Positions 2,049 through 44,927 are shown, counted from the stretch's first letter. The stretch: DNA of 64,000 nt from an uncultured Alphaproteobacteria bacterium (GCA_902521315.1 CABYRH010000008.1:18066-82065); one strand, 5' to 3'. Notes: generated by a model from the sequence alone, not told the origin. Made by a program: numbers and translations.

Positions 2049-3332
2049 ATGAAATATTATTTTAGTCGAATATGGGCTGGTATATTAATTACTTTACTTT
2101 CTTTTTCATTCACTAGTAGCTCTTATGCAATTGATATTAAACTTTGGGATCTTTCTGCAAGACAAGGTCAAGATGAGTTCTATGAATTATTAAAGAAAGA
2201 AGTTAAAAAATATAATCCAGATATTAATGTTATTGTAACCGAGTGGGAAAATGAGGCATATAAAACTCAAATTCAACTTGCTCTTAATGGTGACGATGGA
2301 CCTGATGTCTTCTTTAACTGGTTTGGTGAAGATAGTGCAAGACTAGCAAGAGCTGGTTTAGCACTCGACCTTACACCTTACGCCGATATGGAAGGTGGAT
2401 ATGGAAGCTTCATTAGTAAAGGTTGGCAAGATGCTGGTGCAGTAGATGGAAAAATTTATGGTATTGCTAATAAAGCAGTTTCAAAATACTTCTATTACGA
2501 TCCTGCATTCTTTGATCAACATAACTTATCTGTTCCTACAACATTTGGAGAGTTAATTGATACTTGTAAAAGTATAAAAGCAATAGACCCTTCAATTGTT
2601 CCATGGCCAATGGGTAATTCTGAGAGATGGAAATTAAATCATGTTATTACCATGCTTAATCAAAGAGTAGTAGGAGCAGAAAATACAAAAGCGGATTATG
2701 CATTAACTGCACCTGATGATGAATTATTCACAAATCCTAAATATGTTGAAGCTTGGGAAAAAGTTGTTGAACTAAATGAAAATTGTTTCAATGATGCGCC
2801 AAATGCAACTAATCCAGAATTAACTAGATCAATGTTTGCAGCTCAAATTTCACCTATGATGTATTGTGGAACTTGGTGTGGAGGTATTTTTGCTTCTGAA
2901 GGTTTCACAGATTTTAAAATGTTTAGATTTCCACGTGTTGAAGGTGGAGCTGATGATGGAACTGTAGGCTTTCTAGTTGCAGAAGGATTACAAGTATCGG
3001 CAAAAACTAAACATCCAGAAGCAGCGGCTTTAGTAGCATCAATTAATGTATCTGATACTATGGCTTTAGCAGATGCTGAGTTGAGAGGTAGTTTGATATC
3101 AAATGCAACTTTAATTGATCAAATGGAAGATGCTCCTCATTGGTTTACGTTTTATGTCAATGATATTGCTGACAAAAGTGGACATGTAAATGTTTTAGAT
3201 GTTCTTTTAGAAGCGAATGTATCTAATGCTTATCTTGATATGGGAACTGAAGTTCTTAATGGAACAAAATCTCCTCAAGAAGCAATGGATTTCATTAGAA
3301 AAGTTGCTTTAGAAGCTAAAGCAGCAATGTAA
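2049..3332 (+). CDS. Carbohydrate ABC transporter (CUT1) substrate-binding protein
   Basis: Signal peptide, GPDVF motif; AAGGAGG RBS favours ATG 2049 over 2010; followed by two permeases. Confidence 0.9.
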   Translation: MKYYFSRIWAGILITLLSFSFTSSSYAIDIKLWDLSARQGQDEFYELLKKEVKKYNPDINVIVTEWENEAYKTQIQLALNGDDGPDVFFNWFGEDSARLARAGLALDLTPYADMEGGYGSFISKGWQDAGAVDGKIYGIANKAVSKYFYYDPAFFDQHNLSVPTTFGELIDTCKSIKAIDPSIVPWPMGNSERWKLNHVITMLNQRVVGAENTKADYALTAPDDELFTNPKYVEAWEKVVELNENCFNDAPNATNPELTRSMFAAQISPMMYCGTWCGGIFASEGFTDFKMFRFPRVEGGADDGTVGFLVAEGLQVSAKTKHPEAAALVASINVSDTMALADAELRGSLISNATLIDQMEDAPHWFTFYVNDIADKSGHVNVLDVLLEANVSNAYLDMGTEVLNGTKSPQEAMDFIRKVALEAKAAM

Positions 3333-3345
3333 TAAAAAAATTAAT

Positions 3346-3372
3346 TTCGGCTATTAATAATTAATAGCCGAA
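3346..3372 (+). terminator. Intercistronic stem-loop after SBP gene (mRNA stabiliser/attenuator)
   Basis: TTCGGCTATTAAT-A-ATTAATAGCCGAA inverted repeat. Confidence 0.65.
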
Positions 3373-3380
3373 GTTATTAT

Positions 3381-4286
3381 ATGAATAAAACTCAAACAAA
3401 CTCAATTGGTTTTTCTTTATCTAGTGATAGGGTATCCGTAATTATTCTTTTAATCCCAGCTCTTATATTTTGTACAATATTTATATTTATTCCAGCATTT
3501 TGGGCCATAGTTGGATCGTTTTATAGCTATGGAATGACTTCTCTTAATGATTGGAAATGGGTTGGTTTTGATAATTATATAAAAGCATCACAGGATGAAT
3601 TTTTTTGGATTGCATTAAAAAATAATTTTATAATTGTTTTTGCGTCAATCGTTCTGCAAGTAGGTGTAGGTACAATACTAGCAGCTATCTTAGATCGAGG
3701 AATAAAATACGGAAAAGTAATTTTTCGAACTATTATATTTACACCAATGGTTATATCATCTGTTGCAGTAAGTATAATTTGGTTAATAATTTATGATCCA
3801 AATGTTGGAATTTTAAATAGCATATTAAAAGCAATAGGCTTGCCAACACCTTCAATGGGTTGGTTGGGGGATCCTGATATATCTATTTGGATGATTATGA
3901 TTGTTGCTGGCTGGCAAAATACTGGATTTATGATGGTTTTAATCCTAGCTGGTTTACAAGGAGTTTCTAAAGAAGTTTATGATGCAGCAGAGATAGATGG
4001 TGCAACGGGTGTAAAAGCATTTTGGTATATTACTCTTCCGATGATTAGAAATATTATAATTGTTGCAATTTTGATAACAACTATTGGTGCATTTAAAGTA
4101 TTTGAATTTGTTTATGTCTTAACCCAAGGTGGTCCATCGAATGCAACACAAGTATTAGGAACATATATTTATTTACAAGCATTTAATTTATTGCATATGG
4201 GTTATGCCAATGCTTTGTCAGTTGTACTATTAATTATTGCCTTAATTTTAGGTTGGTTTCAACTTAAAGCAAGTAGGAGAGCGTAG
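3381..4286 (+). CDS. Carbohydrate ABC permease (MalF/UgpA-like)
   Basis: Hydrophobic; EAA loop YDAAEIDGA; TQGGPSNAT. Confidence 0.92.
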   Translation: MNKTQTNSIGFSLSSDRVSVIILLIPALIFCTIFIFIPAFWAIVGSFYSYGMTSLNDWKWVGFDNYIKASQDEFFWIALKNNFIIVFASIVLQVGVGTILAAILDRGIKYGKVIFRTIIFTPMVISSVAVSIIWLIIYDPNVGILNSILKAIGLPTPSMGWLGDPDISIWMIMIVAGWQNTGFMMVLILAGLQGVSKEVYDAAEIDGATGVKAFWYITLPMIRNIIIVAILITTIGAFKVFEFVYVLTQGGPSNATQVLGTYIYLQAFNLLHMGYANALSVVLLIIALILGWFQLKASRRA

Positions 4287-5104
4287 TGAGTAAATTTAAG
4301 TTAGCTAATATATTTGCTTACGGTTTTGTAACTCTCTTTAGTATCTATGTACTATTACCAATAATAGTGATGATACTGACTACTTTTAAAACAAGAAGGG
4401 AAATTTTTTTAGAACCACTAGGTTTACCAGGTCAATTTAATTTTTCTTCATTTGAAAAGGCATTATCCATAGGCCTTGGGGGTTTTATCTTCAATTCTTT
4501 TTTGGTTTCATTATTTTCAGTTATTTTAATAGTAATAATTGCAGGAATGGCTGCCTATGTTCTAGCAAGAATAGATTTTAGAATAAATAGATATGTCTAT
4601 TTATTAATTGTTGCAGGTTTCGCAATACCTCCAGCAGCTGTGCTTGTACCACTTTATGTAACAGTATCAAATTTAGGATTATTAAATAGTATATATGGTG
4701 TAGTAATGCCGTTAACTGCATTTGGTATTCCATTCACCGTTATTTTATTTTATGCTTTCTTTTTAGATTTCCCAAAAGAAGTTGAGGAAGCAGCCACTAT
4801 TGATGGTTGCAGTAAGATGCAGATTTTTTTTAGAATTATTATTCCATTATCTGGTCCAGCTATTGCTAGTGCAGCAATTTTTCAAACTGTATGGATCTGG
4901 AATGAATTTCTACTAGCATTAATTATGTTGACATCTGATGAAGTAAAAACCTTGCCATTAGGACTAATGAAGCTGAGAGGAGAATGGTCATCTGATTGGC
5001 CATCAATTATGGCTGGACTAACAATAGCAATCTTACCAGTTCTTATAGTATTCTTGATTTTCCAAAAATACTTTGTAAGGTCTTTAGCAGGTTTAGGAAA
5101 ATAA
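4286..5104 (+). CDS. Carbohydrate ABC permease (MalG/UgpE-like)
   Basis: EEAATIDGCS, WNEFL motifs; GTG start overlaps previous stop. Confidence 0.92.
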   Translation: MSKFKLANIFAYGFVTLFSIYVLLPIIVMILTTFKTRREIFLEPLGLPGQFNFSSFEKALSIGLGGFIFNSFLVSLFSVILIVIIAGMAAYVLARIDFRINRYVYLLIVAGFAIPPAAVLVPLYVTVSNLGLLNSIYGVVMPLTAFGIPFTVILFYAFFLDFPKEVEEAATIDGCSKMQIFFRIIIPLSGPAIASAAIFQTVWIWNEFLLALIMLTSDEVKTLPLGLMKLRGEWSSDWPSIMAGLTIAILPVLIVFLIFQKYFVRSLAGLGK

Positions 5105-5109
5105 ATAAC

Positions 5110-5388
5110 ATGGCCAAAAGACAAAAAGTTTTAGTTCTCTATTTAAAGTTACCAAGCTTAGAAGGAGAAGTAATTTCTTGGGCAACCTTTGATGGTACGG
5201 GAAAAAAACTACATATGACAGGAGATAGTGATCAGCCTCCTTATCCTACAGGTTTGGATGCTTTATTAGATGGCTGGAGATTATTTCAAGCAAGTCAAGC
5301 TATTCCTGAACATCCAGGTCAAGAATTCAGAACATCGTATTTAAAGCATGAATTTTTTTTTGAAAAATTAGAAGAAGGAGATTTTTAA
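5110..5388 (+). CDS. Conserved hypothetical ~92 aa protein coupled to PhyH gene
   Basis: ATG at 5110 (MAKRQKVLVLYL...PPYPTGLDALLDGWRL) fills the gap between permease and PhyH gene; ORF-track start 4996 overlaps the permease. Confidence 0.75.
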   Translation: MAKRQKVLVLYLKLPSLEGEVISWATFDGTGKKLHMTGDSDQPPYPTGLDALLDGWRLFQASQAIPEHPGQEFRTSYLKHEFFFEKLEEGDF

Positions 5389-5389
5389 T

Positions 5390-6310
5390 ATGGCTAAGTT
5401 ATTGACAACAGAGCAAATGGCTGAATTTGCAAATAGTGGATGTTTATTTTTTGATGAATTAATTGATGAACAAACTAATAAAGAGTTTTTAGATGATATT
5501 GGTCATACAGAAATTGATGAAGTTGATAGTGTTCAGCATTATTATAGAAATATAAAAGCAACAAGTAGTATCCCAAGAATACCAGCAGGAACAAAACTTA
5601 AAGATGCTTATCCAAAAGGCTCTCCTTTAGAAAAAATTTTTGCACATGAAGTTGTTGATGGTGCTATTAAAAGTTTAGTTGGTAGTAACACAATTATTGA
5701 TCACCAGTTTCTTCATATTACGTTTCCTACCAAATACTTTAAACAAGCAAATCAACGTCAGATGTCTCAACAAAATCACCAAGATAGTACGATTGATCCA
5801 AGAAGTACTTTTGACGTACAATTATTTTATTTTCCAACAGAGGTAACAAAAGAAATGGGAGGAACAAGATATCACCCTGGTACGCATTTACGTATTGTTA
5901 ATGAATTTGGAATTGCAAAATATCAAAATATTTTAGGACAAAAGAGTATAGTTTGTAAACCTGGTACAATTGGTATTTTCCATAGTGGTTTATGGCATGG
6001 TGCAGGTGTAAATTTTTCAGAAAATATTCGCTATATGTTTAAAGTGAGACTCCAACCTACAGAAAAACAGGAATTACTATGGGATCCTGAAAAAAAATAT
6101 CAGCCATTGCCAAACCGTGCACTTTATTGGACGGATGAAAGTAAGGAAAAAACGATAAACGATATTTTAATGAGATCTTATCCCTGGCAAGAAGCAGATA
6201 CAAATAGACTTGACAAAATCAATGTTGTTAAATTTTGGAGATTGTTAACTGGTCATAAGAAAATGGATGTTGATTATTGGTTAACACGCATTGAAAATGA
6301 ACTCTACTAA
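5390..6310 (+). CDS. PhyH-family Fe(II)/2-oxoglutarate dioxygenase
   Basis: H-x-D (NHQDS), GGT..PGTH and distal His (LWHG) motifs. Confidence 0.8.
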   Translation: MAKLLTTEQMAEFANSGCLFFDELIDEQTNKEFLDDIGHTEIDEVDSVQHYYRNIKATSSIPRIPAGTKLKDAYPKGSPLEKIFAHEVVDGAIKSLVGSNTIIDHQFLHITFPTKYFKQANQRQMSQQNHQDSTIDPRSTFDVQLFYFPTEVTKEMGGTRYHPGTHLRIVNEFGIAKYQNILGQKSIVCKPGTIGIFHSGLWHGAGVNFSENIRYMFKVRLQPTEKQELLWDPEKKYQPLPNRALYWTDESKEKTINDILMRSYPWQEADTNRLDKINVVKFWRLLTGHKKMDVDYWLTRIENELY

Positions 6311-39031: not shown

Positions 39032-40084
39032 ATGAAAAAAATTAAAGGACCTGCAATATTTTTAGCACAGTTTATAGGCGATAAAGAACCATTTAATTCA
39101 CTACCTAGTATATGTAAATGGGTATCTGATCTTGGATATAAAGGAATTCAATTGCCAGCAGAAAATTTAGCAGTTTTTGATTTGGATAAAGCAGCTTCGA
39201 GTAAAGATTACTGTGATGAAATAAAAGGAATAGCAAAAAATTTTAATCTTGAAATAACTGATATTGCATCTCATCTAACCGGTCAATTGGTTGCAGTTCA
39301 TCCTGCTTATGACACACTCTTTGATGGTTTTGCTGCTGATGAGGTAAAGGGTAATCCAAAAGCTAGACAAGAATGGGCAGTAAAAAGGATGATGAATGTC
39401 GCTCAAGCATCAAAAAACTTAAATTTAAAAACTGCTGCTACATTTTCTGGTGCTTTATGTTGGCCTTTTCTTTATCCATTTCCTCAAAGACCTGAAGGTT
39501 TAGAAGATGAAGCTTTTGGTGAATTAGCAAAAAGATGGCATCCAATTTTAGATAAATTTGATGAGTGTGGAGTAGATCTTTGTTACGAAATTCACCCTAG
39601 TGAGGATTTACACGATGGTTCAACTTTCGAAATGTTTTTAGACAGAGTAAATAATCATAAACGTTGTAATATGTTGTATGACCCAAGTCATTATGTTCTC
39701 CAATGTTTAAACTATCTTGATCACATTGATATTTACCATGAAAGAATCAAAATGTTTCATGTTAAAGATGCAGAATTTAATCCGTCTGGTAGGCAAGGAG
39801 TTTACGGAGGTTATCAATCATGGATAAACAGAGCAGGAAGATTCAGATCACTTGGTGATGGGCAGGTTGATTTTAAATCAATTTTTTCAAAACTATCTGG
39901 TTATAATTTTGATGGATGGGCAGTTTTAGAGTGGGAATGCTGTATTAAAAGCCCTGAACAAGGTGCAGCTGAAGGAGCTCCATTTATTCAAAATCACATT
40001 ATTGAAGTTACAGACAAAGCATTTGATGATTTTGCAAGTTCTGGAACGGACGAGCAAGCTAACAAAAAGATTTTAGGTATATAA
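39032..40084 (+). CDS. Sugar phosphate isomerase/epimerase (AP-endonuclease-2 TIM barrel)
   Basis: YEIH, YDPSH, FHVKD, VLEWE metal ligands. Confidence 0.88.
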   Translation: MKKIKGPAIFLAQFIGDKEPFNSLPSICKWVSDLGYKGIQLPAENLAVFDLDKAASSKDYCDEIKGIAKNFNLEITDIASHLTGQLVAVHPAYDTLFDGFAADEVKGNPKARQEWAVKRMMNVAQASKNLNLKTAATFSGALCWPFLYPFPQRPEGLEDEAFGELAKRWHPILDKFDECGVDLCYEIHPSEDLHDGSTFEMFLDRVNNHKRCNMLYDPSHYVLQCLNYLDHIDIYHERIKMFHVKDAEFNPSGRQGVYGGYQSWINRAGRFRSLGDGQVDFKSIFSKLSGYNFDGWAVLEWECCIKSPEQGAAEGAPFIQNHIIEVTDKAFDDFASSGTDEQANKKILGI

Positions 40085-40093
40085 GGAGTAATT

Positions 40094-41245
40094 ATGGGAA
40101 GAAGATTAAAACTTGGGATGATAGGTGGTGGCCAAGGAGCTTTTATTGGAGCCGTGCATCGTCTATGTGCAAGGATGGATGATAAGTATGAATTTGTTGC
40201 TGGTTGTTTATCTTCAACTCCTGAAAAAGCAGCTAAGTCTGCTGAAGAAATTGGTCTTGATCCTTCAAGAAGTTACCCTGATTTTAAAACTATGGTTGAA
40301 GAAGAATCTAAAAGAGATGACGGTATTGAAGTAGTATCCATTGTTACACCAAATCATATGCATGCTGCACCAGCAATAGAATTTCTAAATAAAAATATTC
40401 ATGTTATTTGTGATAAACCTATGACTTCTACAATGGAAGATGCTCATAAATTAGTTGAAGCAGTCTCTAAATCTGATGCTCATTTTTTCTTAACTCATAA
40501 TTATTCCGGATATCCAGTTGTTAGAGGTATGAGATCACTTATTGAAAATGGAGCACTAGGGAAAATAAGAATTATTAAAGGATCTTATCTTCAGGGTTGG
40601 CTTGGCTCAAAAGAAGAAGATTCAGGTTCTAATAAACAAGCAGAATGGAGAACTGATCCTTCAAGAAGTGGAGCTGCAGGAAGTGTGGGTGATATAGGAA
40701 GTCATGCTATGCATTTGTTAGAATTTATTACCCAATTAAAATTACAATCAGTTAGTGCAGATCTAACTACATTTGTTGAAGGAAGAAAATTAGATGATGA
40801 TGCTTCTATAATGATCAGATTAAATAATGGAGCTAAGGGATCATTATCTATCTCTCAAGTTGCAACAGGTGAAGAAAATAATTTTAGTGTTGCTATTTAT
40901 GGTGACAAGGGTGCATTGAAATGGAGTCAAGAAAATCCAAATTATGCAACATTTAATCAAGTAGGGGAGGCGAGTCAGATAATAACTAGAGGCGGTTCGA
41001 TTAAAGTTGAAGGAAGTGAAGCTAATGTCCGAATCCCTGCTGGTCACCCAGAAGGATATCTTGAGGCATTTGCACAAATCTATTCAGATGCTGCAGATGT
41101 TATTCAAAATAAAAAAAATAAGGAAGAATTATTAAAGATGCTTCCAAATATTGATGATGGTTTGCACATAATGAAATTTATTAATGCTACTGTAGATTCG
41201 AGTAATAATAATTCTAAGTGGATAAATTTATCTGAAATAAATTGA
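40094..41245 (+). CDS. Gfo/Idh/MocA-family oxidoreductase
   Basis: GGGQGAFIG.VH, ICDKP, GDIGSHA, PAGHPEGY. Confidence 0.9.
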   Translation: MGRRLKLGMIGGGQGAFIGAVHRLCARMDDKYEFVAGCLSSTPEKAAKSAEEIGLDPSRSYPDFKTMVEEESKRDDGIEVVSIVTPNHMHAAPAIEFLNKNIHVICDKPMTSTMEDAHKLVEAVSKSDAHFFLTHNYSGYPVVRGMRSLIENGALGKIRIIKGSYLQGWLGSKEEDSGSNKQAEWRTDPSRSGAAGSVGDIGSHAMHLLEFITQLKLQSVSADLTTFVEGRKLDDDASIMIRLNNGAKGSLSISQVATGEENNFSVAIYGDKGALKWSQENPNYATFNQVGEASQIITRGGSIKVEGSEANVRIPAGHPEGYLEAFAQIYSDAADVIQNKKNKEELLKMLPNIDDGLHIMKFINATVDSSNNNSKWINLSEIN

Positions 41246-41350
41246 TATTTTGGCAGTATTATTAGTTTTTTTTATATATGCAAATATTGCATACCAATAT
41301 TCTCTTAAATATTCTTACTAAAATTCAATAATAAACTAATTCACTTATCA

Positions 41351-41401
41351 CGTTCATCACTCTTTTAGGGTGACGGAAGTAGACGAAAGTCGAAGGAACG
41401 C
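41351..41401 (+). ncRNA. glnA-motif (glutamine-I) riboswitch aptamer 1 of amtB copy 1
   Basis: P1 CGTTC/GAACG+C; P2 TCACTCT-TTT-AGGGTGA; CGGAAGTA..GAAG E-loop; P3 GAC-GAAA-GTC. Confidence 0.88.
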
Positions 41402-41417
41402 ATGCAAAGTTATAAAT

Positions 41418-41468
41418 CGTTCAATTTGCCCTTAGGCAAATCGGAAGTAGGTTAAACCGAAGGAACGC
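41418..41468 (+). ncRNA. glnA-motif riboswitch aptamer 2 of amtB copy 1
   Basis: P1 CGTTC/GAACG+C; P2 ATTTGCC-CTTA-GGCAAAT; CGGAAGTA-GGT-TAA-ACC-GAAG. Confidence 0.88.
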
Positions 41469-41560
41469 GGATCTTAGTAATTAATTTCCATAGCTAAGCA
41501 TGAAAAGTAACGCATGACTCAATGTGAGCCATGTACTGTGAAATTTATAATGGAGGATTA

Positions 41561-42847
41561 ATGTTAAAAAAATCTATATATTTCATTAGCATTATTGCCG
41601 TCTTTATGCTCTTTAGTTCATACGCGAGAGCAGAAGTAGATGGTGAAGTGCAATACATTTTAAATACATTCCTATTTCTTGTATCTGGGTTCTTAGTCAT
41701 GTGGATGGCAGCAGGATTTGCAATGCTTGAATCAGGACTTGTAACGTCTAAAAGTGTAGCAACAATAGCTGCAAAAAATATAGGCTTATATTCTATAGCT
41801 GGTTTAATGTTCTGGTTAGTTGGATATAACATGGCATATGGCATTCCTGCTGGTGGCTTTATTGGATCTCCACTTCCTTGGAGTGATGGTAGTGCTCTAG
41901 ATACAGGTTATTCAGATGGTTCTGACTGGTTCTTTCAGATGGTATTTTGTGCAACAACTTGCTCAATCGTATCTGGAACACTAGCTGAAAGAATCAAAAT
42001 TTGGCCATTTTTTATTTTTTGTGCTTTATTAACTGGTTTCATTTATCCAATCGAAATGGGTTGGCAGTGGGGTGGAGGATACCTAGCGGAAGCAGGTTTC
42101 TCAGATTTTGCTGGATCAACCTTAGTACATAGTGCAGGAGCAGCAGCAGCACTTGCTGGTGCAATTTTGTTAGGTCCAAGATTAGGACGTTTTACTGATA
42201 GTGGTGAAGCAGCTCCAATGGAGCCTTTTGCAAATTCATCAATTCCTCTTGCAACCTTAGGTGTATTTATCCTATGGCTTGGATGGTTCGGGTTTAATGG
42301 TGGATCACAATTAGCTATGGGTACATTTGATGATGTAACAGCAGTAGCAACAATATATATTAATACTAACCTGGCAGCTGGTGCAGGTGTAATGGCTTGT
42401 GCTGTTATTTCTAGACTAGTAACAGGTAAAACAGATGTTGTAATGATGCTTAATGGAGCATTAGGTGGTCTTGTAGCAATAACTGCAGAACCATTAGCTC
42501 CTTCTCCTTTCCTAGCAGTAATCATTGGTGCAATAGGTGGATTAATCGTCTTCTACGGAACAAGACTTTTAATATCTCTTAAAATCGATGATGTTGTTGG
42601 AGCAATTCCAGTACATGGTTTTGCTGGAATTTTTGGAACATTAGTAGTTCCAATTTCAAACACTGCAGCAAGTTTTGGTGCACAACTTTACGGAATTATA
42701 GCAATTAACGTTTTCGTTTTTGTTGTATCATTTATTATTTGGTACATCATGAAAATGCTCTTTGGTATTAGAATTAGTGAAGAAGCTGAAAAACTTGGTA
42801 CTGATAAATCTGAAGTAGGTGTAATGGCTTACAGCATCAGAGACTAA
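41561..42847 (+). CDS. amtB: Ammonium transporter (paralog 1)
   Basis: DFAGSTLVH, LWLGWFGFNGGS, IDDVVGAIPVH; GGAGG RBS supports ATG 41561. Confidence 0.96.
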   Translation: MLKKSIYFISIIAVFMLFSSYARAEVDGEVQYILNTFLFLVSGFLVMWMAAGFAMLESGLVTSKSVATIAAKNIGLYSIAGLMFWLVGYNMAYGIPAGGFIGSPLPWSDGSALDTGYSDGSDWFFQMVFCATTCSIVSGTLAERIKIWPFFIFCALLTGFIYPIEMGWQWGGGYLAEAGFSDFAGSTLVHSAGAAAALAGAILLGPRLGRFTDSGEAAPMEPFANSSIPLATLGVFILWLGWFGFNGGSQLAMGTFDDVTAVATIYINTNLAAGAGVMACAVISRLVTGKTDVVMMLNGALGGLVAITAEPLAPSPFLAVIIGAIGGLIVFYGTRLLISLKIDDVVGAIPVHGFAGIFGTLVVPISNTAASFGAQLYGIIAINVFVFVVSFIIWYIMKMLFGIRISEEAEKLGTDKSEVGVMAYSIRD

Positions 42848-42896
42848 TGAATTTAGTGATTAGCACATCAACTCCTTATAGTTGGTCACTAAAAAA

Positions 42897-42918
42897 TGGG
42901 AGAGCATTTGCTCTCCCA
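42897..42918. terminator. Hairpin after amtB1 (terminator-like)
   Basis: TGGGAGAGC-ATTT-GCTCTCCCA flanked by A tracts on both sides (U tract lies on minus strand). Confidence 0.7.
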
Positions 42919-42946
42919 AAAATGAAAAATATTATTGAGATATCTA

Positions 42947-43321
42947 ATGACTGAAACAGAAATAATTAAAGAGAAAAAAAGAAACATATATTCTAGTTTC
43001 TTTTCAGAAGATTACGTCTCCAAATTTTTATTTAAATCAATTTTACACCATGTTATCTCTCTTGAAATATATGAAAATAATAAATTGAATGGAATTTCGT
43101 TTGAAACAATTTGCGCAAATATACCTAAGTCAATTGGATCTAGATCATCTATTCAATCTATTTTAAACGAAGCTTTAGAAAAAAATATTTTTGTTAAAGA
43201 GCAAAGTAAATCAGACAAACGAATTAAAAATTATTATTTAAGCAATAATTTTCTCGATATGATTAATACATGGTTAAGAAAAGAGGGTTCATTTTTTAGC
43301 AAAATGAGTTTAGAAAATTAA
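42947..43321 (+). CDS. Putative winged-helix (MarR-like) DNA-binding protein
   Basis: HTH-like SRSSIQSILNEA followed by wing motif SDKRIKNYYL; ~124 aa. Confidence 0.55.
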   Translation: MTETEIIKEKKRNIYSSFFSEDYVSKFLFKSILHHVISLEIYENNKLNGISFETICANIPKSIGSRSSIQSILNEALEKNIFVKEQSKSDKRIKNYYLSNNFLDMINTWLRKEGSFFSKMSLEN

Positions 43322-43354
43322 TCAGATTTTATTAATTAAATTTAATACTATTTC

Positions 43355-43382
43355 TTGATAGTTTCCGAATTATAGCTATAAA
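43355..43382 (+). promoter_or_regulatory. Putative sigma70 promoter for riboswitch-amtB2 transcript
   Basis: TTGATA-N16-TATAAA ending 8 nt before aptamer 1; AT-rich background weakens the call. Confidence 0.4.
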
Positions 43383-43390
43383 TCAATTCA

Positions 43391-43441
43391 CGTTCATCAC
43401 TCTATTGGAGTGACGGAAGTAGACAATTGTCGAAGGAACGC
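43391..43441 (+). ncRNA. glnA-motif riboswitch aptamer 1 of amtB copy 2
   Basis: P1 CGTTC/GAACG+C; P2 TCACTCT-ATT-GGAGTGA; P3 GAC-AATT-GTC; same core as 41351-41401. Confidence 0.88.
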
Positions 43442-43457
43442 ATGCAAAGTTATTAAT

Positions 43458-43507
43458 CGTTCAATTTGCAGTTTGCAAATCGGAAGTAGGTATACCCGAA
43501 GGAACGC
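43458..43507 (+). ncRNA. glnA-motif riboswitch aptamer 2 of amtB copy 2
   Basis: P2 ATTTGCA-GTT-TGCAAAT (compensatory change versus copy 1); CGGAAGTA-GG-TATAC-CC-GAAGGAACGC. Confidence 0.88.
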
Positions 43508-43598
43508 GGATCTTAGTAATTAATTTCCATAGCTAGGCATGATTTAATGCATAACTAAAGGGTAGTTATGTGTTTATAATTTTATATGGAGTTAAATA

Positions 43599-44885
43599 AT
43601 GTATAAAAAATTTTTTAGTCTTTTTACAATATTCTCTTTTATTTTGTTGCTAAGTTCATCTGTGAGAGCAGAGGTTGACGCTGAAGTAGCATATATATTT
43701 AATACATTTTCATTTCTAGTTTGTGGATTTTTAGTAATGTGGATGGCTGCTGGTTTTCTATTTTTAGAATCAGGTCTTGTTACAACCAGAAGTGTATCAA
43801 CTATTGCTGCTAAAAATATTGGAAAGTTCGCAATAGTTTCAATTGTTTTCTATTTAATAGGATACAATCTTGGATATTCTGTCCCTGAAGGAGGTTATGT
43901 TGGTACACCATCAATATGGACTGATAATACATCAATGGAAACAGGTTATTCAGATGCTTCAGACTGGTTTTTTCAAGCTTTATTTGTTTGTGCCACTGTT
44001 TCAATTGTATCAGGTGCGGTCGCAGAGCGAATAAAAATTTGGCCTTTCTTTACTTTTGCAGCAGTTCTTGGAGGAGTGATTTATCCAATTCAAATGGGTT
44101 GGGAATGGGGCGGAGGTTGGTTAGATGCCCTTGGATTTGCAGATTTTGCAGGTTCAACATTAGTTCATGCTTGTGGTGGTTCAGCTGCCTTAGCTGGTGT
44201 AATTCTTTTAGGTCCAAGACTTGGGAGATTTAGCGCAAGTGGTGAACCAGCTAATATGGCCCCATTTGCTCCATCATCAATTCCATTAGTTACTCTAGGT
44301 ACATTTATTTTATGGATGGGTTGGTATGGTTTTAATGGCGGGTCACAACTTGCATTAGGTTCTTATGAAGATGCAACAGCAATGTCAAAAATTTTCATGA
44401 ACACTCAACTTGCAGCTTGCGGTGGATGTATGGCTGGCGCAGCAATAACAAGATTGATTGGTGGTAAAACTGATATTGTCATGATGCTAAATGGAGCTCT
44501 TGCTGGCCTAGTTTCAATAACTGCTGAGCCATTAATGCCTAGTCCATTGCTTGCAATTGGAATTGGAGCAGTTGGAGGAATTATAATGTATTACGGAACT
44601 AACTTCTTAAATTCATTAAAGTTAGACGATGTTGTTGGTGCAATACCTGTACATATGTTTGCTGGAATTTGGGGAACATTAGTCGTACCTTTAACTAATC
44701 CTGATGCATCATATGCAATTCAGTTATTAGGTGTTGCATCAGTATGTATCTTTGTTTTTGTTTTCTCATATATTGTAATATATTTAATTAAAAATATTAT
44801 GGGATTAAGAATTAGTGAAGAAGCTGAAAAACTTGGAACTGATAAGGCTGAGGTAGGAGTTGTAGCTTATTCAATAAGAGATTAA
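43599..44885 (+). CDS. amtB: Ammonium transporter (paralog 2)
   Basis: DFAGSTLVH, LWMGWYGFNGGS, LDDVVGAIPVH; collinear with paralog 1. Confidence 0.96.
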   Translation: MYKKFFSLFTIFSFILLLSSSVRAEVDAEVAYIFNTFSFLVCGFLVMWMAAGFLFLESGLVTTRSVSTIAAKNIGKFAIVSIVFYLIGYNLGYSVPEGGYVGTPSIWTDNTSMETGYSDASDWFFQALFVCATVSIVSGAVAERIKIWPFFTFAAVLGGVIYPIQMGWEWGGGWLDALGFADFAGSTLVHACGGSAALAGVILLGPRLGRFSASGEPANMAPFAPSSIPLVTLGTFILWMGWYGFNGGSQLALGSYEDATAMSKIFMNTQLAACGGCMAGAAITRLIGGKTDIVMMLNGALAGLVSITAEPLMPSPLLAIGIGAVGGIIMYYGTNFLNSLKLDDVVGAIPVHMFAGIWGTLVVPLTNPDASYAIQLLGVASVCIFVFVFSYIVIYLIKNIMGLRISEEAEKLGTDKAEVGVVAYSIRD

Positions 44886-44901: not shown

Positions 44902-44927
44902 TAAGAGAGGTAATTTTACCTCTCTTA
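44902..44927. terminator. Hairpin after amtB2
   Basis: TAAGAGAGGTAA-TT-TTACCTCTCTTA perfect inverted repeat. Confidence 0.7.

Follow-up and report, generated by a model that had tools for sequence, protein, structure and literature searches.

Tandem glutamine aptamers in the leaders of two ammonium transporter genes of an alphaproteobacterium and a putative glutamine-sensing RNA regulon of its family

The analyzed DNA, below called the window, is a stretch of 64,000 nt from an uncultured Alphaproteobacteria bacterium (GCA_902521315.1, CABYRH010000008.1:18066-82065). It contains two genes of ammonium transporters, amtB1 and amtB2, each preceded by a tandem pair of glutamine riboswitch aptamers (the glnA motif, RF01739). 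The initial annotation, made from the sequence, had described four aptamer copies arranged as tandem pairs, one pair immediately 5' of each amtB gene, and had placed the whole arrangement at positions 41351-44885; both the description and the coordinates are correct. The scan of the whole window on both strands with the Rfam covariance models (cmscan, gathering thresholds) yields RF01739 as the sole matching family, with exactly four matches, the number that had been expected, all of them on the plus strand and all covering model positions 1-53 of 53. The scores are 55.4-61.4 bits (cut-off 35) with E-values from 4e-11 to 1.8e-9, and the reading frames downstream of both pairs match PF00909 (Table 1). 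The two complete aptamers of a pair are 11-13 nt apart and are followed by a single Shine-Dalgarno site and a single start codon.

Table 1. Features of the amtB1-amtB2 region, with positions counted from the first nucleotide of the window
Feature	Position	Strand	Basis
Perfect palindrome ATGCAAATATTGCAT, upstream of the amtB1 leader	41278-41292		single site in the window (chance expectation 0.01)
amtB1 leader, glutamine aptamer 1 (RF01739)	41349-41404	+	61.4 bits, full model
amtB1 leader, P0 5' strand (CAUGC-AA-AGUUAU), inter-aptamer linker	41401-41413	+	predicted pairing
amtB1 leader, glutamine aptamer 2 (RF01739)	41416-41471	+	59.6 bits, full model
amtB1 leader, hairpin H3 (GGAU...UUCC)	41469-41489	+	RNAalifold pairs 136-138/155-157
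amtB1 leader, candidate anti-Shine-Dalgarno stretch, 3' side of H3	41481-41491	+	complementary to 41550-41561
amtB1 leader, P0 3' strand (AUAGCU-AA-GCAUG)	41490-41502	+	predicted pairing
amtB1 leader, hairpin H4	41512-41534	+	RNAalifold covariation
amtB1 Shine-Dalgarno GGAGG (41552-41556) and start codon (41561-41563)	41550-41563	+	sequence; duplex with tail -7.7 kcal/mol
amtB1, ammonium transporter, 428 aa	41561-42847	+	PF00909, E 9.9e-98
G+C-rich hairpin 3' of amtB1	42897-42918		hairpin scan
Small reading frame, 124 aa, between amtB1 and amtB2	42947-43321	+	no Pfam family
Promoter-like TTGATA, 16-base spacer, TATAAA	43355-43382	+	sequence; kept in 9/9 amtB2-type leaders
amtB2 leader, glutamine aptamer 1 (RF01739)	43389-43444	+	59.5 bits
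amtB2 leader, P0 5' strand	43441-43453	+	predicted pairing
amtB2 leader, glutamine aptamer 2 (RF01739)	43456-43510	+	55.4 bits
amtB2 leader, H3, candidate anti-Shine-Dalgarno stretch, P0 3' strand	43508-43541	+	predicted pairing
amtB2 leader, hairpin H4	43549-43571	+	RNAfold, RNAalifold
amtB2, ammonium transporter, 428 aa	43599-44885	+	PF00909, E 4e-96
G+C-rich hairpin 3' of amtB2	44902-44927		hairpin scan

Our collection of leaders comprises 73 distinct tandem units and 76 distinct full leaders. The core nucleotides CGUUCA / CGGAAGUA / GAAGGAACGC are invariant in all 73 distinct tandem leaders. In the alignment of 23 amt leaders (RNAalifold), P1 of the three-stem junction is invariant, the first hairpin covaries at several pairs (both-side changes in up to 10 of the 23 sequences), and so does the second one (in 2 to 6 of the 23). 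The motifs quoted in the initial annotation as shared between the copies are present in the sequence, and the differences quoted there are real: the change from GCC/GGC to GCA/TGC is located in the first hairpin of aptamer 2 and keeps the pairing, and the change from GAAA to AATT in the loop of the second hairpin of aptamer 1. The aptamers lie in same-strand 5' leaders of nitrogen-metabolism genes (amtB twice, and glnA, see below). Judging by these sequence features, the four aptamers of the window are true members of the known glutamine riboswitch class, with predicted binding of L-glutamine.

Outside the aptamer cores, two stretches are almost invariant across gene classes and genera, namely the inter-aptamer linker and, 3' of aptamer 2, an element of approximately 35 nt (the tail). 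According to RNAfold, and to RNAalifold applied to 23 amt leaders, these stretches pair with each other as CAUGC/GCAUG and AGUUAU/AUAGCU (or AUAACU), the two parts being separated by a small internal loop, and form a helix of about 11 bp, denoted here as P0. The duplex is predicted in all 46 distinct linker/tail combinations (-9 to -11 kcal/mol); compared to shuffled tails, its z-scores range from -2.4 to -4.8, being about -3.2, and the real value is attained by 1% of shuffles on average. Neither strand varies across 7 genera and 73 distinct leaders, while the neighbouring loops do; in the tail only one base varies freely, and it is located in the internal loop of P0. The variant linkers of three glnA leaders (L138, L159, L162) still pair, with the register shifted. 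Aptamer 2 and a weak hairpin, H3, are enclosed by P0, which P1 of aptamer 1 adjoins. The fourth pair of H3 differs between leaders, being U.U, A-U or U-A (variants GGAA..UUCC and GGAU..AUCC). Downstream of P0 there are hairpin H4 and then the Shine-Dalgarno site. The sequence of H4 differs between leader classes with the pairing kept (pairs 183/199, 184/198 and 188/194 of the RNAalifold alignment, with both-side changes in 3 to 8 sequences per pair).

As read from the sequence, amtB1 has its most likely start at 41561, five bases after GGAGG; the start at 41531 suggested by the ORF finder was rejected and falls within a leader hairpin. Several other candidate elements of the leaders were rejected as well. 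In the free minimum-energy fold (RNAfold), the 5' half of aptamer 1 pairs with the Shine-Dalgarno region of amtB1, and this hairpin drifts between species with no matching changes in the site. An alternative helix, in which the H3 loop pairs with the second hairpin of aptamer 2, has no matching variation between leader classes. Finally, neither the frame nor the length of a mini reading frame starting from the AUG inside AUGGAGG is conserved between amt leaders, and this motif is read as the Shine-Dalgarno site.

The source assembly (1.54 Mb, 35 contigs, 87% complete) contains eight RF01739 aptamers, which form four tandem pairs in four near-identical leaders, each amtB leader being about 210 nt long. 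The third pair is situated between the PII gene and glnA, encoding type I glutamine synthetase (GS), and the fourth one precedes an operon encoding circularly permuted ATP-grasp (CP_ATPgrasp_2), Alpha-E and transglutaminase-like (Transglut_core) proteins. The control of two genes suggested by the initial annotation is thus right for both amtB genes and narrower than the actual set of four leaders, which includes those of glnA and of the ATP-grasp operon and occurs family-wide. Judging by the sequence, the four leaders would form a glutamine-sensing RNA regulon characteristic of the source family. The identity of the aptamers and the regulon, taken by themselves, are practically certain. Aptamer control of the ATP-grasp/Alpha-E/transglutaminase-like operon would tie a widespread cassette to the nitrogen status.

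The latter operon occupies positions 2275-5467 of locus L189 (contig C1 of the source genome, G000), and its homolog in G174, a genome from another family of the class (locus L188), has a single aptamer. In ATP-grasp leaders (positions about 1687-1750 of L001, and relatives) a short reading frame is observed between the conserved tail and the main start. It begins at an AUGG complementary to CCAUAG of the tail, and in many species its end overlaps the main start; its length is not conserved, varying from 7 to about 20 codons.

In the species-level genome collection, the nearest relatives of the AmtB proteins come from Pelagibacteraceae and other Alphaproteobacteria (54-77% identity), and the genome itself belongs to a class with at least 150 families, in agreement with the alphaproteobacterial host proposed initially. 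The Rfam scan covered 40 of the 80 returned loci of AmtB relatives; tandem aptamers are present in only one of these 40, recorded as coming from a SAR116-cluster alphaproteobacterium (L020), and no RF01739 match was found in the Pelagibacteraceae amtB loci among them. Within the source genus, the aptamer is found in 35 of the 36 other genomes, and within the source family, in 77 of 79 genomes and 7 of 8 genera, compared to 0 of 71 genomes of the sister family, the only other family of the order. When 150 other families of the class were sampled, one genome per family, the sole occurrence was in the above-mentioned G174, where a single aptamer precedes an ATP-grasp gene of the same kind. The glnA-linked pair is the most widespread target in the family (6 genera, loci L158-L172), and amtB-linked pairs are found in two genera. 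A loose tandem pattern applied to metagenomes returned 80 loci, none with the aptamer, the pattern being too weak; a 16-base word applied to viral sequences returned 14 loci, about the number expected by chance, and none of them had the aptamer by regular expression.

Some genomes of the family also carry a single aptamer before a third Amt paralog (L089, L142, L145, L147, L170, L180). In these leaders, a long pyrimidine tract after the aptamer can pair with its purine-rich half, and the fold obtained without constraints exceeds the aptamer fold in stability by 9-17 kcal/mol.

The profile search of the source genome reveals one PII gene and one pair of a histidine kinase and a response regulator, of the NtrY/NtrX type, which adjoins trkA. 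Neither the uridylyltransferase domain of GlnD nor the sigma-54 DNA-binding domain was found in this genome, at its 87% completeness. The comparison of sensors was limited to the genomes of the order that are at least 85% complete, 26 from the source family and 24 from the sister family. GlnD is found in 0/26 and 24/24 of them, respectively, and GlnE in 0/26 and 22/24; PII is present in 19/26 genomes of the source family, one copy in each, and in 24/24 genomes of the sister family, mostly in two copies. Hence the riboswitch and GlnD/GlnE are complementary between the two families, in what is one evolutionary comparison and not a statistic. It appears that the source family, lacking the protein sensor of glutamine, uses the RNA one in its place. 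A stronger claim is that a cis-acting RNA took over the job of GlnD-PII-GlnE, so that the nested double aptamer before glnA, two or three amt genes and the ATP-grasp operon would be the main glutamine sensor of the cell, a two-input OFF switch built with an aptamer that is ON in cyanobacteria; we consider this possible, at somewhat less than even odds.

The genomes of the sister family, among which there is a closed one of 1.4 Mb, have GlnD, GlnE and two PII genes, and the same gene content is described for strain HIMB59 (Smith et al. 2013, PMC3870248). In addition, a 2024 paper gives up to two ammonium transporters per genome for AEGEAN-169 clade II. Because of these two matches, we infer that the source family is the sister family of HIMB59 in the AEGEAN-169 order. 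If this placement is right, the group is common in the nutrient-poor surface ocean, and its nitrogen sensing matters for models of ammonium use.

As for the output of the switch, the 3' side of H3/P0 contains a U/C-rich stretch. In amt leaders it reads UUUCCAU, complementary to AUGGAG(G), with duplex energies of -7.7 and -8.0 kcal/mol in the window, and its counterpart in glnA leaders, UUUCAU, is complementary to the start AUGAAAU. In the sole glnA leader with the amt-type tail (L171) an AUGGAGG site is present too, and tail and site form an uninterrupted run of 12 pairs (-11.8 kcal/mol); matched classes of tails and targets pair 1.3-1.8 kcal/mol better than swapped ones. On these models, positions 41550-41563 are the proposed target of the candidate anti-Shine-Dalgarno stretch of amtB1. 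When the five nucleotides after each P1 are made unavailable, which mimics ligand-induced melting of the helix below P1, the opening cost of the ribosome-binding site increases from 1.8 to 5.8 kcal/mol in amt leaders (by more than 1 kcal/mol in 31 of 36) and from 3.0 to 8.2 kcal/mol in glnA leaders (21/21), the U/C-rich stretch moving in the model to the ribosome-binding site. The single-aptamer ATP-grasp leader of G174 is a plain relay of a purine stretch, a pyrimidine stretch and the Shine-Dalgarno site, and models as an OFF switch with the opening cost of 3.5 kcal/mol when free and 7.8 kcal/mol when bound. Wherever the role of a controlled gene is known, it is uptake or assimilation of ammonium.

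The mechanism that we propose is as follows. At low glutamine, the U/C-rich stretch would be held by H3/P0 or by the purine-rich core of the unfolded aptamer 2, leaving the ribosome-binding site free, so that AmtB and GS would be made. At high glutamine, both aptamers would fold around the ligand and release the stretch, which would pair with the ribosome-binding site or the start codon, and translation would fall; two sensors acting on one OFF switch would yield a steeper response. The whole explanation, comprising tandem aptamer leaders, a glutamine RNA regulon, P0 and a translational OFF switch, has in our estimate a probability slightly below 0.6. Its translational OFF component, considered separately and in line with the OFF logic proposed by the initial annotation, is rather probable, mainly since all targets with a known role take up or fix ammonium, and the modelling of the ligand-induced melting points in the same direction. 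The particular roles of P0 and of the anti-Shine-Dalgarno stretch, as modelled, are proposed tentatively and could well be different.

Several observations weigh against this explanation. The anti-Shine-Dalgarno duplex is not unusual compared to shuffled sequences (z from -0.6 to -1.4 for most amt leaders, most values being close to -0.7), and among 65 other Shine-Dalgarno-like sites of the window, 12% and 6% form an equally good duplex; the stretch of ATP-grasp leaders mismatches the main start (-2 kcal/mol), matching only the upstream AUGG. Forcing or forbidding the aptamers in the nearest-neighbour model of 76 leaders gives no usable switch, the differences being below 1 kcal/mol, and with the aptamers folded the ribosome-binding site opens slightly more easily (mean -0.4 to -0.9 kcal/mol, 55 of 76 leaders). 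P0 has no compensatory changes in the amt class, all 11 pairs being invariant or changed on one side (RNAalifold), and, because no pair of this class changes on both sides, P0 is supported by conservation and complementarity and not by covariation. The step in which the ligand would melt the helix below P1 depends on a mechanism reportedly described by Ren et al. in 2015. By the usual rule for riboswitches, the ligand stabilises P1 and what stacks on it, which would make P0 more stable with glutamine and the switch ON. Finally, apart from the contrast in GlnD and GlnE being a single comparison, G174, where the aptamer controls only the ATP-grasp operon, keeps both GlnD and PII.

The direction of the switch is not readable from the sequence alone, and the models disagree on its sign. 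In particular, the same parts could make an ON switch, where glutamine would stabilise both P1 stems, stacked on P0, and P0 would sequester the U/C-rich stretch, leaving the ribosome-binding site open; without glutamine the aptamers would misfold (e.g., if the 3' strand of aptamer 1 paired with the 5' strand of aptamer 2), P0 would be lost, and the freed stretch would block the site. This agrees with the consensus fold, where the Shine-Dalgarno region is unpaired when both aptamers are formed (RNAalifold), with the slightly more open site in the 55 leaders mentioned above, with the ON behaviour of the only tested members of the class, those upstream of cyanobacterial gifB (PMC6212724, PMC6698751), and with the detection of one Pelagibacter Amt protein only in nitrogen-replete cells (PMC3870248). 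However, such a switch would raise GS and ammonium uptake at high glutamine in a family for which the search revealed neither GlnE nor GlnD that could damp GS, the single-aptamer leader of G174 models as OFF, and the differences between the forced and forbidden models are below 1 kcal/mol; on balance, we consider an ON switch unlikely.

The OFF switch acting on translation also has to be compared to an action at the level of the RNA, with H4 as a weak terminator, or with a Rho or RNase site, where glutamine would shorten or destabilise the transcript. Some glnA leaders of other genera (L168, L172, L171) do have a long H4 followed by 6 to 8 U, 4 of 21 glnA leaders have a U-tract after the last stem by the test of at least five U in eight, and CAUG recurs in the linker, the tail and both strands of H4 in amtB1-type leaders, making alternative pairings possible. 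Still, such a U-tract is found in just 2 of 36 amt leaders and 1 of 19 ATP-grasp leaders; no antiterminator complementary to H4 was found in a manual reading of the leaders (no formal test), and H4 forms in all modelled states. Given the rarity of the U-tract, H4 was rejected as a general terminator, and these sequence features suggest translation rather than termination as the general output, termination being unlikely; control at the RNA level is, in sum, improbable. As for causes of conservation other than glutamine sensing, such as gene conversion, or binding of a protein or another ligand by the RNA, with the linker and the tail then forming no helix, the lack of compensatory changes in P0 of the amt class and the close similarity of the four leaders of one genome would fit them. 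On the other hand, all core positions of the glutamine aptamer are kept, the scores exceed the cut-off by 20-30 bits, the stems drift with compensation at the linker and the tail fixed across 7 genera, which indicates selection and not recent copying, and the controlled genes are those of nitrogen assimilation. Such causes are thus very improbable.

The association of this aptamer class with nitrogen genes has a published background. The glnA RNAs in tandem, linked to genes of PII, GS, glutamate synthase and ammonium transporters, were described in unassigned marine metagenome sequence (Weinberg et al. 2010, PMC2864571), and later literature states these associations as confined to environmental sequence, the effect and the taxonomic affiliation of marine glnA-linked copies being given as not known by Klähn et al. 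2018 (PMC6212724). Later reports of RF01739 concern SAR86, a Pelagibacter metagenome-assembled genome, where it adjoins a porin gene, and phages of SAR11 and OM43. Thus the aptamer class as such, the tandem form and the link to amt and glnA in marine metagenomes have been known since 2010. Ames and Breaker are also said to have reported tandem glnA RNAs in marine metagenome sequence in 2011. In the searchable literature, with supplements outside the search (those of Weinberg 2010 and Klähn 2018 may list taxonomic guesses), no link of the amt/glnA-linked tandem RF01739 to the source family, and neither the enclosing helix nor the missing GlnD/GlnE, was found; the words riboswitch and glutamine are both absent from two AEGEAN-169 papers (PMC10308909, PMC11366302).

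The statement of the initial annotation that the motif was described from unassigned marine metagenome sequences, including before ammonium transporters, agrees with the literature up to 2018, where the amt- and glnA-linked copies come only from such sequence. Of what it proposed as possibly undescribed, the host stands, and the regulon and the architecture can be added to it, while the tandem form and the amt association had been published. Within the searchable literature, the host, the regulon, the complementarity with GlnD/GlnE and the nested helix architecture are new. The window and its relatives give the marine glnA/amt-linked glutamine riboswitches a host family, a gene set and a conserved architecture, and make them testable with defined sequences; if true, this would settle the ownership of the riboswitches of this kind seen in ocean metagenomes since 2010. 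The two families would also provide a rare, clean case within one order, suggesting replacement of a protein sensor by an RNA one in the course of genome streamlining, and, if the OFF logic is true, one aptamer class is wired with both signs in nature.

Compared to the glutamine riboswitch of cyanobacteria (glutamine-I, the gifB leader of Synechocystis, PMC6212724), the leaders of the window share the aptamer class, the conserved core, the position in the 5' leader, the control of nitrogen metabolism and, probably, the action on translation. The cyanobacterial copies are single aptamers that control the GS-inactivating factor and are ON with glutamine (PMC6212724), whereas the ones of the window are tandem, nested in P0, placed directly before amtB (and also glnA) in an alphaproteobacterium, and probably OFF. 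The tandem glnA RNAs of marine metagenomes (PMC2864571) very probably come from the same population, being marine, tandem and associated with the same genes; those reports gave neither the host nor the regulatory sign, in contrast to the host family, regulon, enclosing helix and missing GlnD/GlnE given here.

The tandem glycine riboswitch likewise has two similar aptamers in series on one platform (PMC5066625), with a conserved linker that is part of a helix; it has another aptamer fold and another ligand, and in the window the linker helix encloses the second aptamer. The proteobacterial GlnD/PII/GlnE (and NtrBC) cascade responds to the same signal, glutamine, and has the same outputs, GS and ammonium uptake (PMC3870248), but there the sensor is a protein acting via uridylylation and adenylylation, unlike the RNA of the window, which, judging by its position, would act in cis on each mRNA. 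Another parallel is Pelagibacter ubique HTCC1062, also a streamlined marine alphaproteobacterium lacking the full PII network, with structured leaders before its Amt paralogs, amt and amtB (Meyer et al. 2009, cited in Smith et al. 2013, PMC3870248); these leaders are described as two different novel structures with an unknown ligand (PMC3870248).

Metatranscriptome contigs were placed on the window at a likeness of at least 90%; they may derive from relatives or from library DNA, and starts, ends and levels of transcripts are unreadable from them. Contigs from four marine runs, belonging to four studies, extend from the leader into amtB1 (41374-41593 in run X2, 41467-41850, 41474-41662 and 41478-41725), which weakly argues against a transcription start downstream of the aptamers. 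No contig of the four runs covers 41200-41326, and the cover of 42978-43485 is low; holes between contigs prove nothing, and no inference is drawn from them. One contig, of run X4, switches at window position 41391, within the shared core, from the aptamer sequence of the glnA leader to the amtB1 leader. Contig evidence across paralogous leaders needs care, because assemblers join them.

The AmtB1 and AmtB2 proteins are 65% identical over 428 residues with no gaps. At this identity the duplication of amtB genes is not recent, and they are old paralogs, each having, by sequence, its own promoter-like region and leader, which qualifies the duplication mentioned in the initial annotation. The two genes look like separate units, and the hairpin after amtB1 probably ends the first one. 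The A-run upstream and the T-run downstream of both G+C-rich hairpins are observed only when these are read on the minus strand; because of this orientation, the hairpins would be better terminators for minus-strand transcription, although the genes are on the plus strand. The promoter-like sequence upstream of amtB2 would start the transcript at about the first base of aptamer 1; it is not listed by our promoter scan, which demands T at position 6 of the second hexamer.

The palindrome upstream of the amtB1 leader (ATGCA, five A/T, TGCAT) has only three sites in the 1.54-Mb genome. The other two are upstream of an ATP-grasp leader (contig C1, 10955-10969, locus L182) and of a small-RNA-like element (contig C10, 2579-2593, positions 1501-1515 of locus L184). 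It is a candidate transcription-factor site, which would add a transcriptional layer of control; it contains CAA and TTG separated by three bases, which may represent an NtrX type of site. The element 3' of the third palindrome (about 90 nt, approximately 1540-1632 of L184) has a clean terminator and the hairpin loop UUCCUCCCAUU (CCUCCC) resembling an anti-Shine-Dalgarno sequence, folds with -19.8 kcal/mol (z -2.8), and matched no family in the Rfam search; it is a candidate nitrogen-regulated small RNA.

The reading frame of 124 aa between the amtB genes yielded no match in the Pfam search. In the protein atlas it lies near clusters of hypothetical proteins of about 118 aa, one near cluster having HTH_27 in 11% of its members, which, as a weak lead, suggests that it may encode a small winged-helix regulator. 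Upstream of the amtB1 leader (39032-41245) there are genes of a xylose-isomerase-like TIM-barrel protein and of a GFO/IDH/MocA oxidoreductase, unrelated to nitrogen control.

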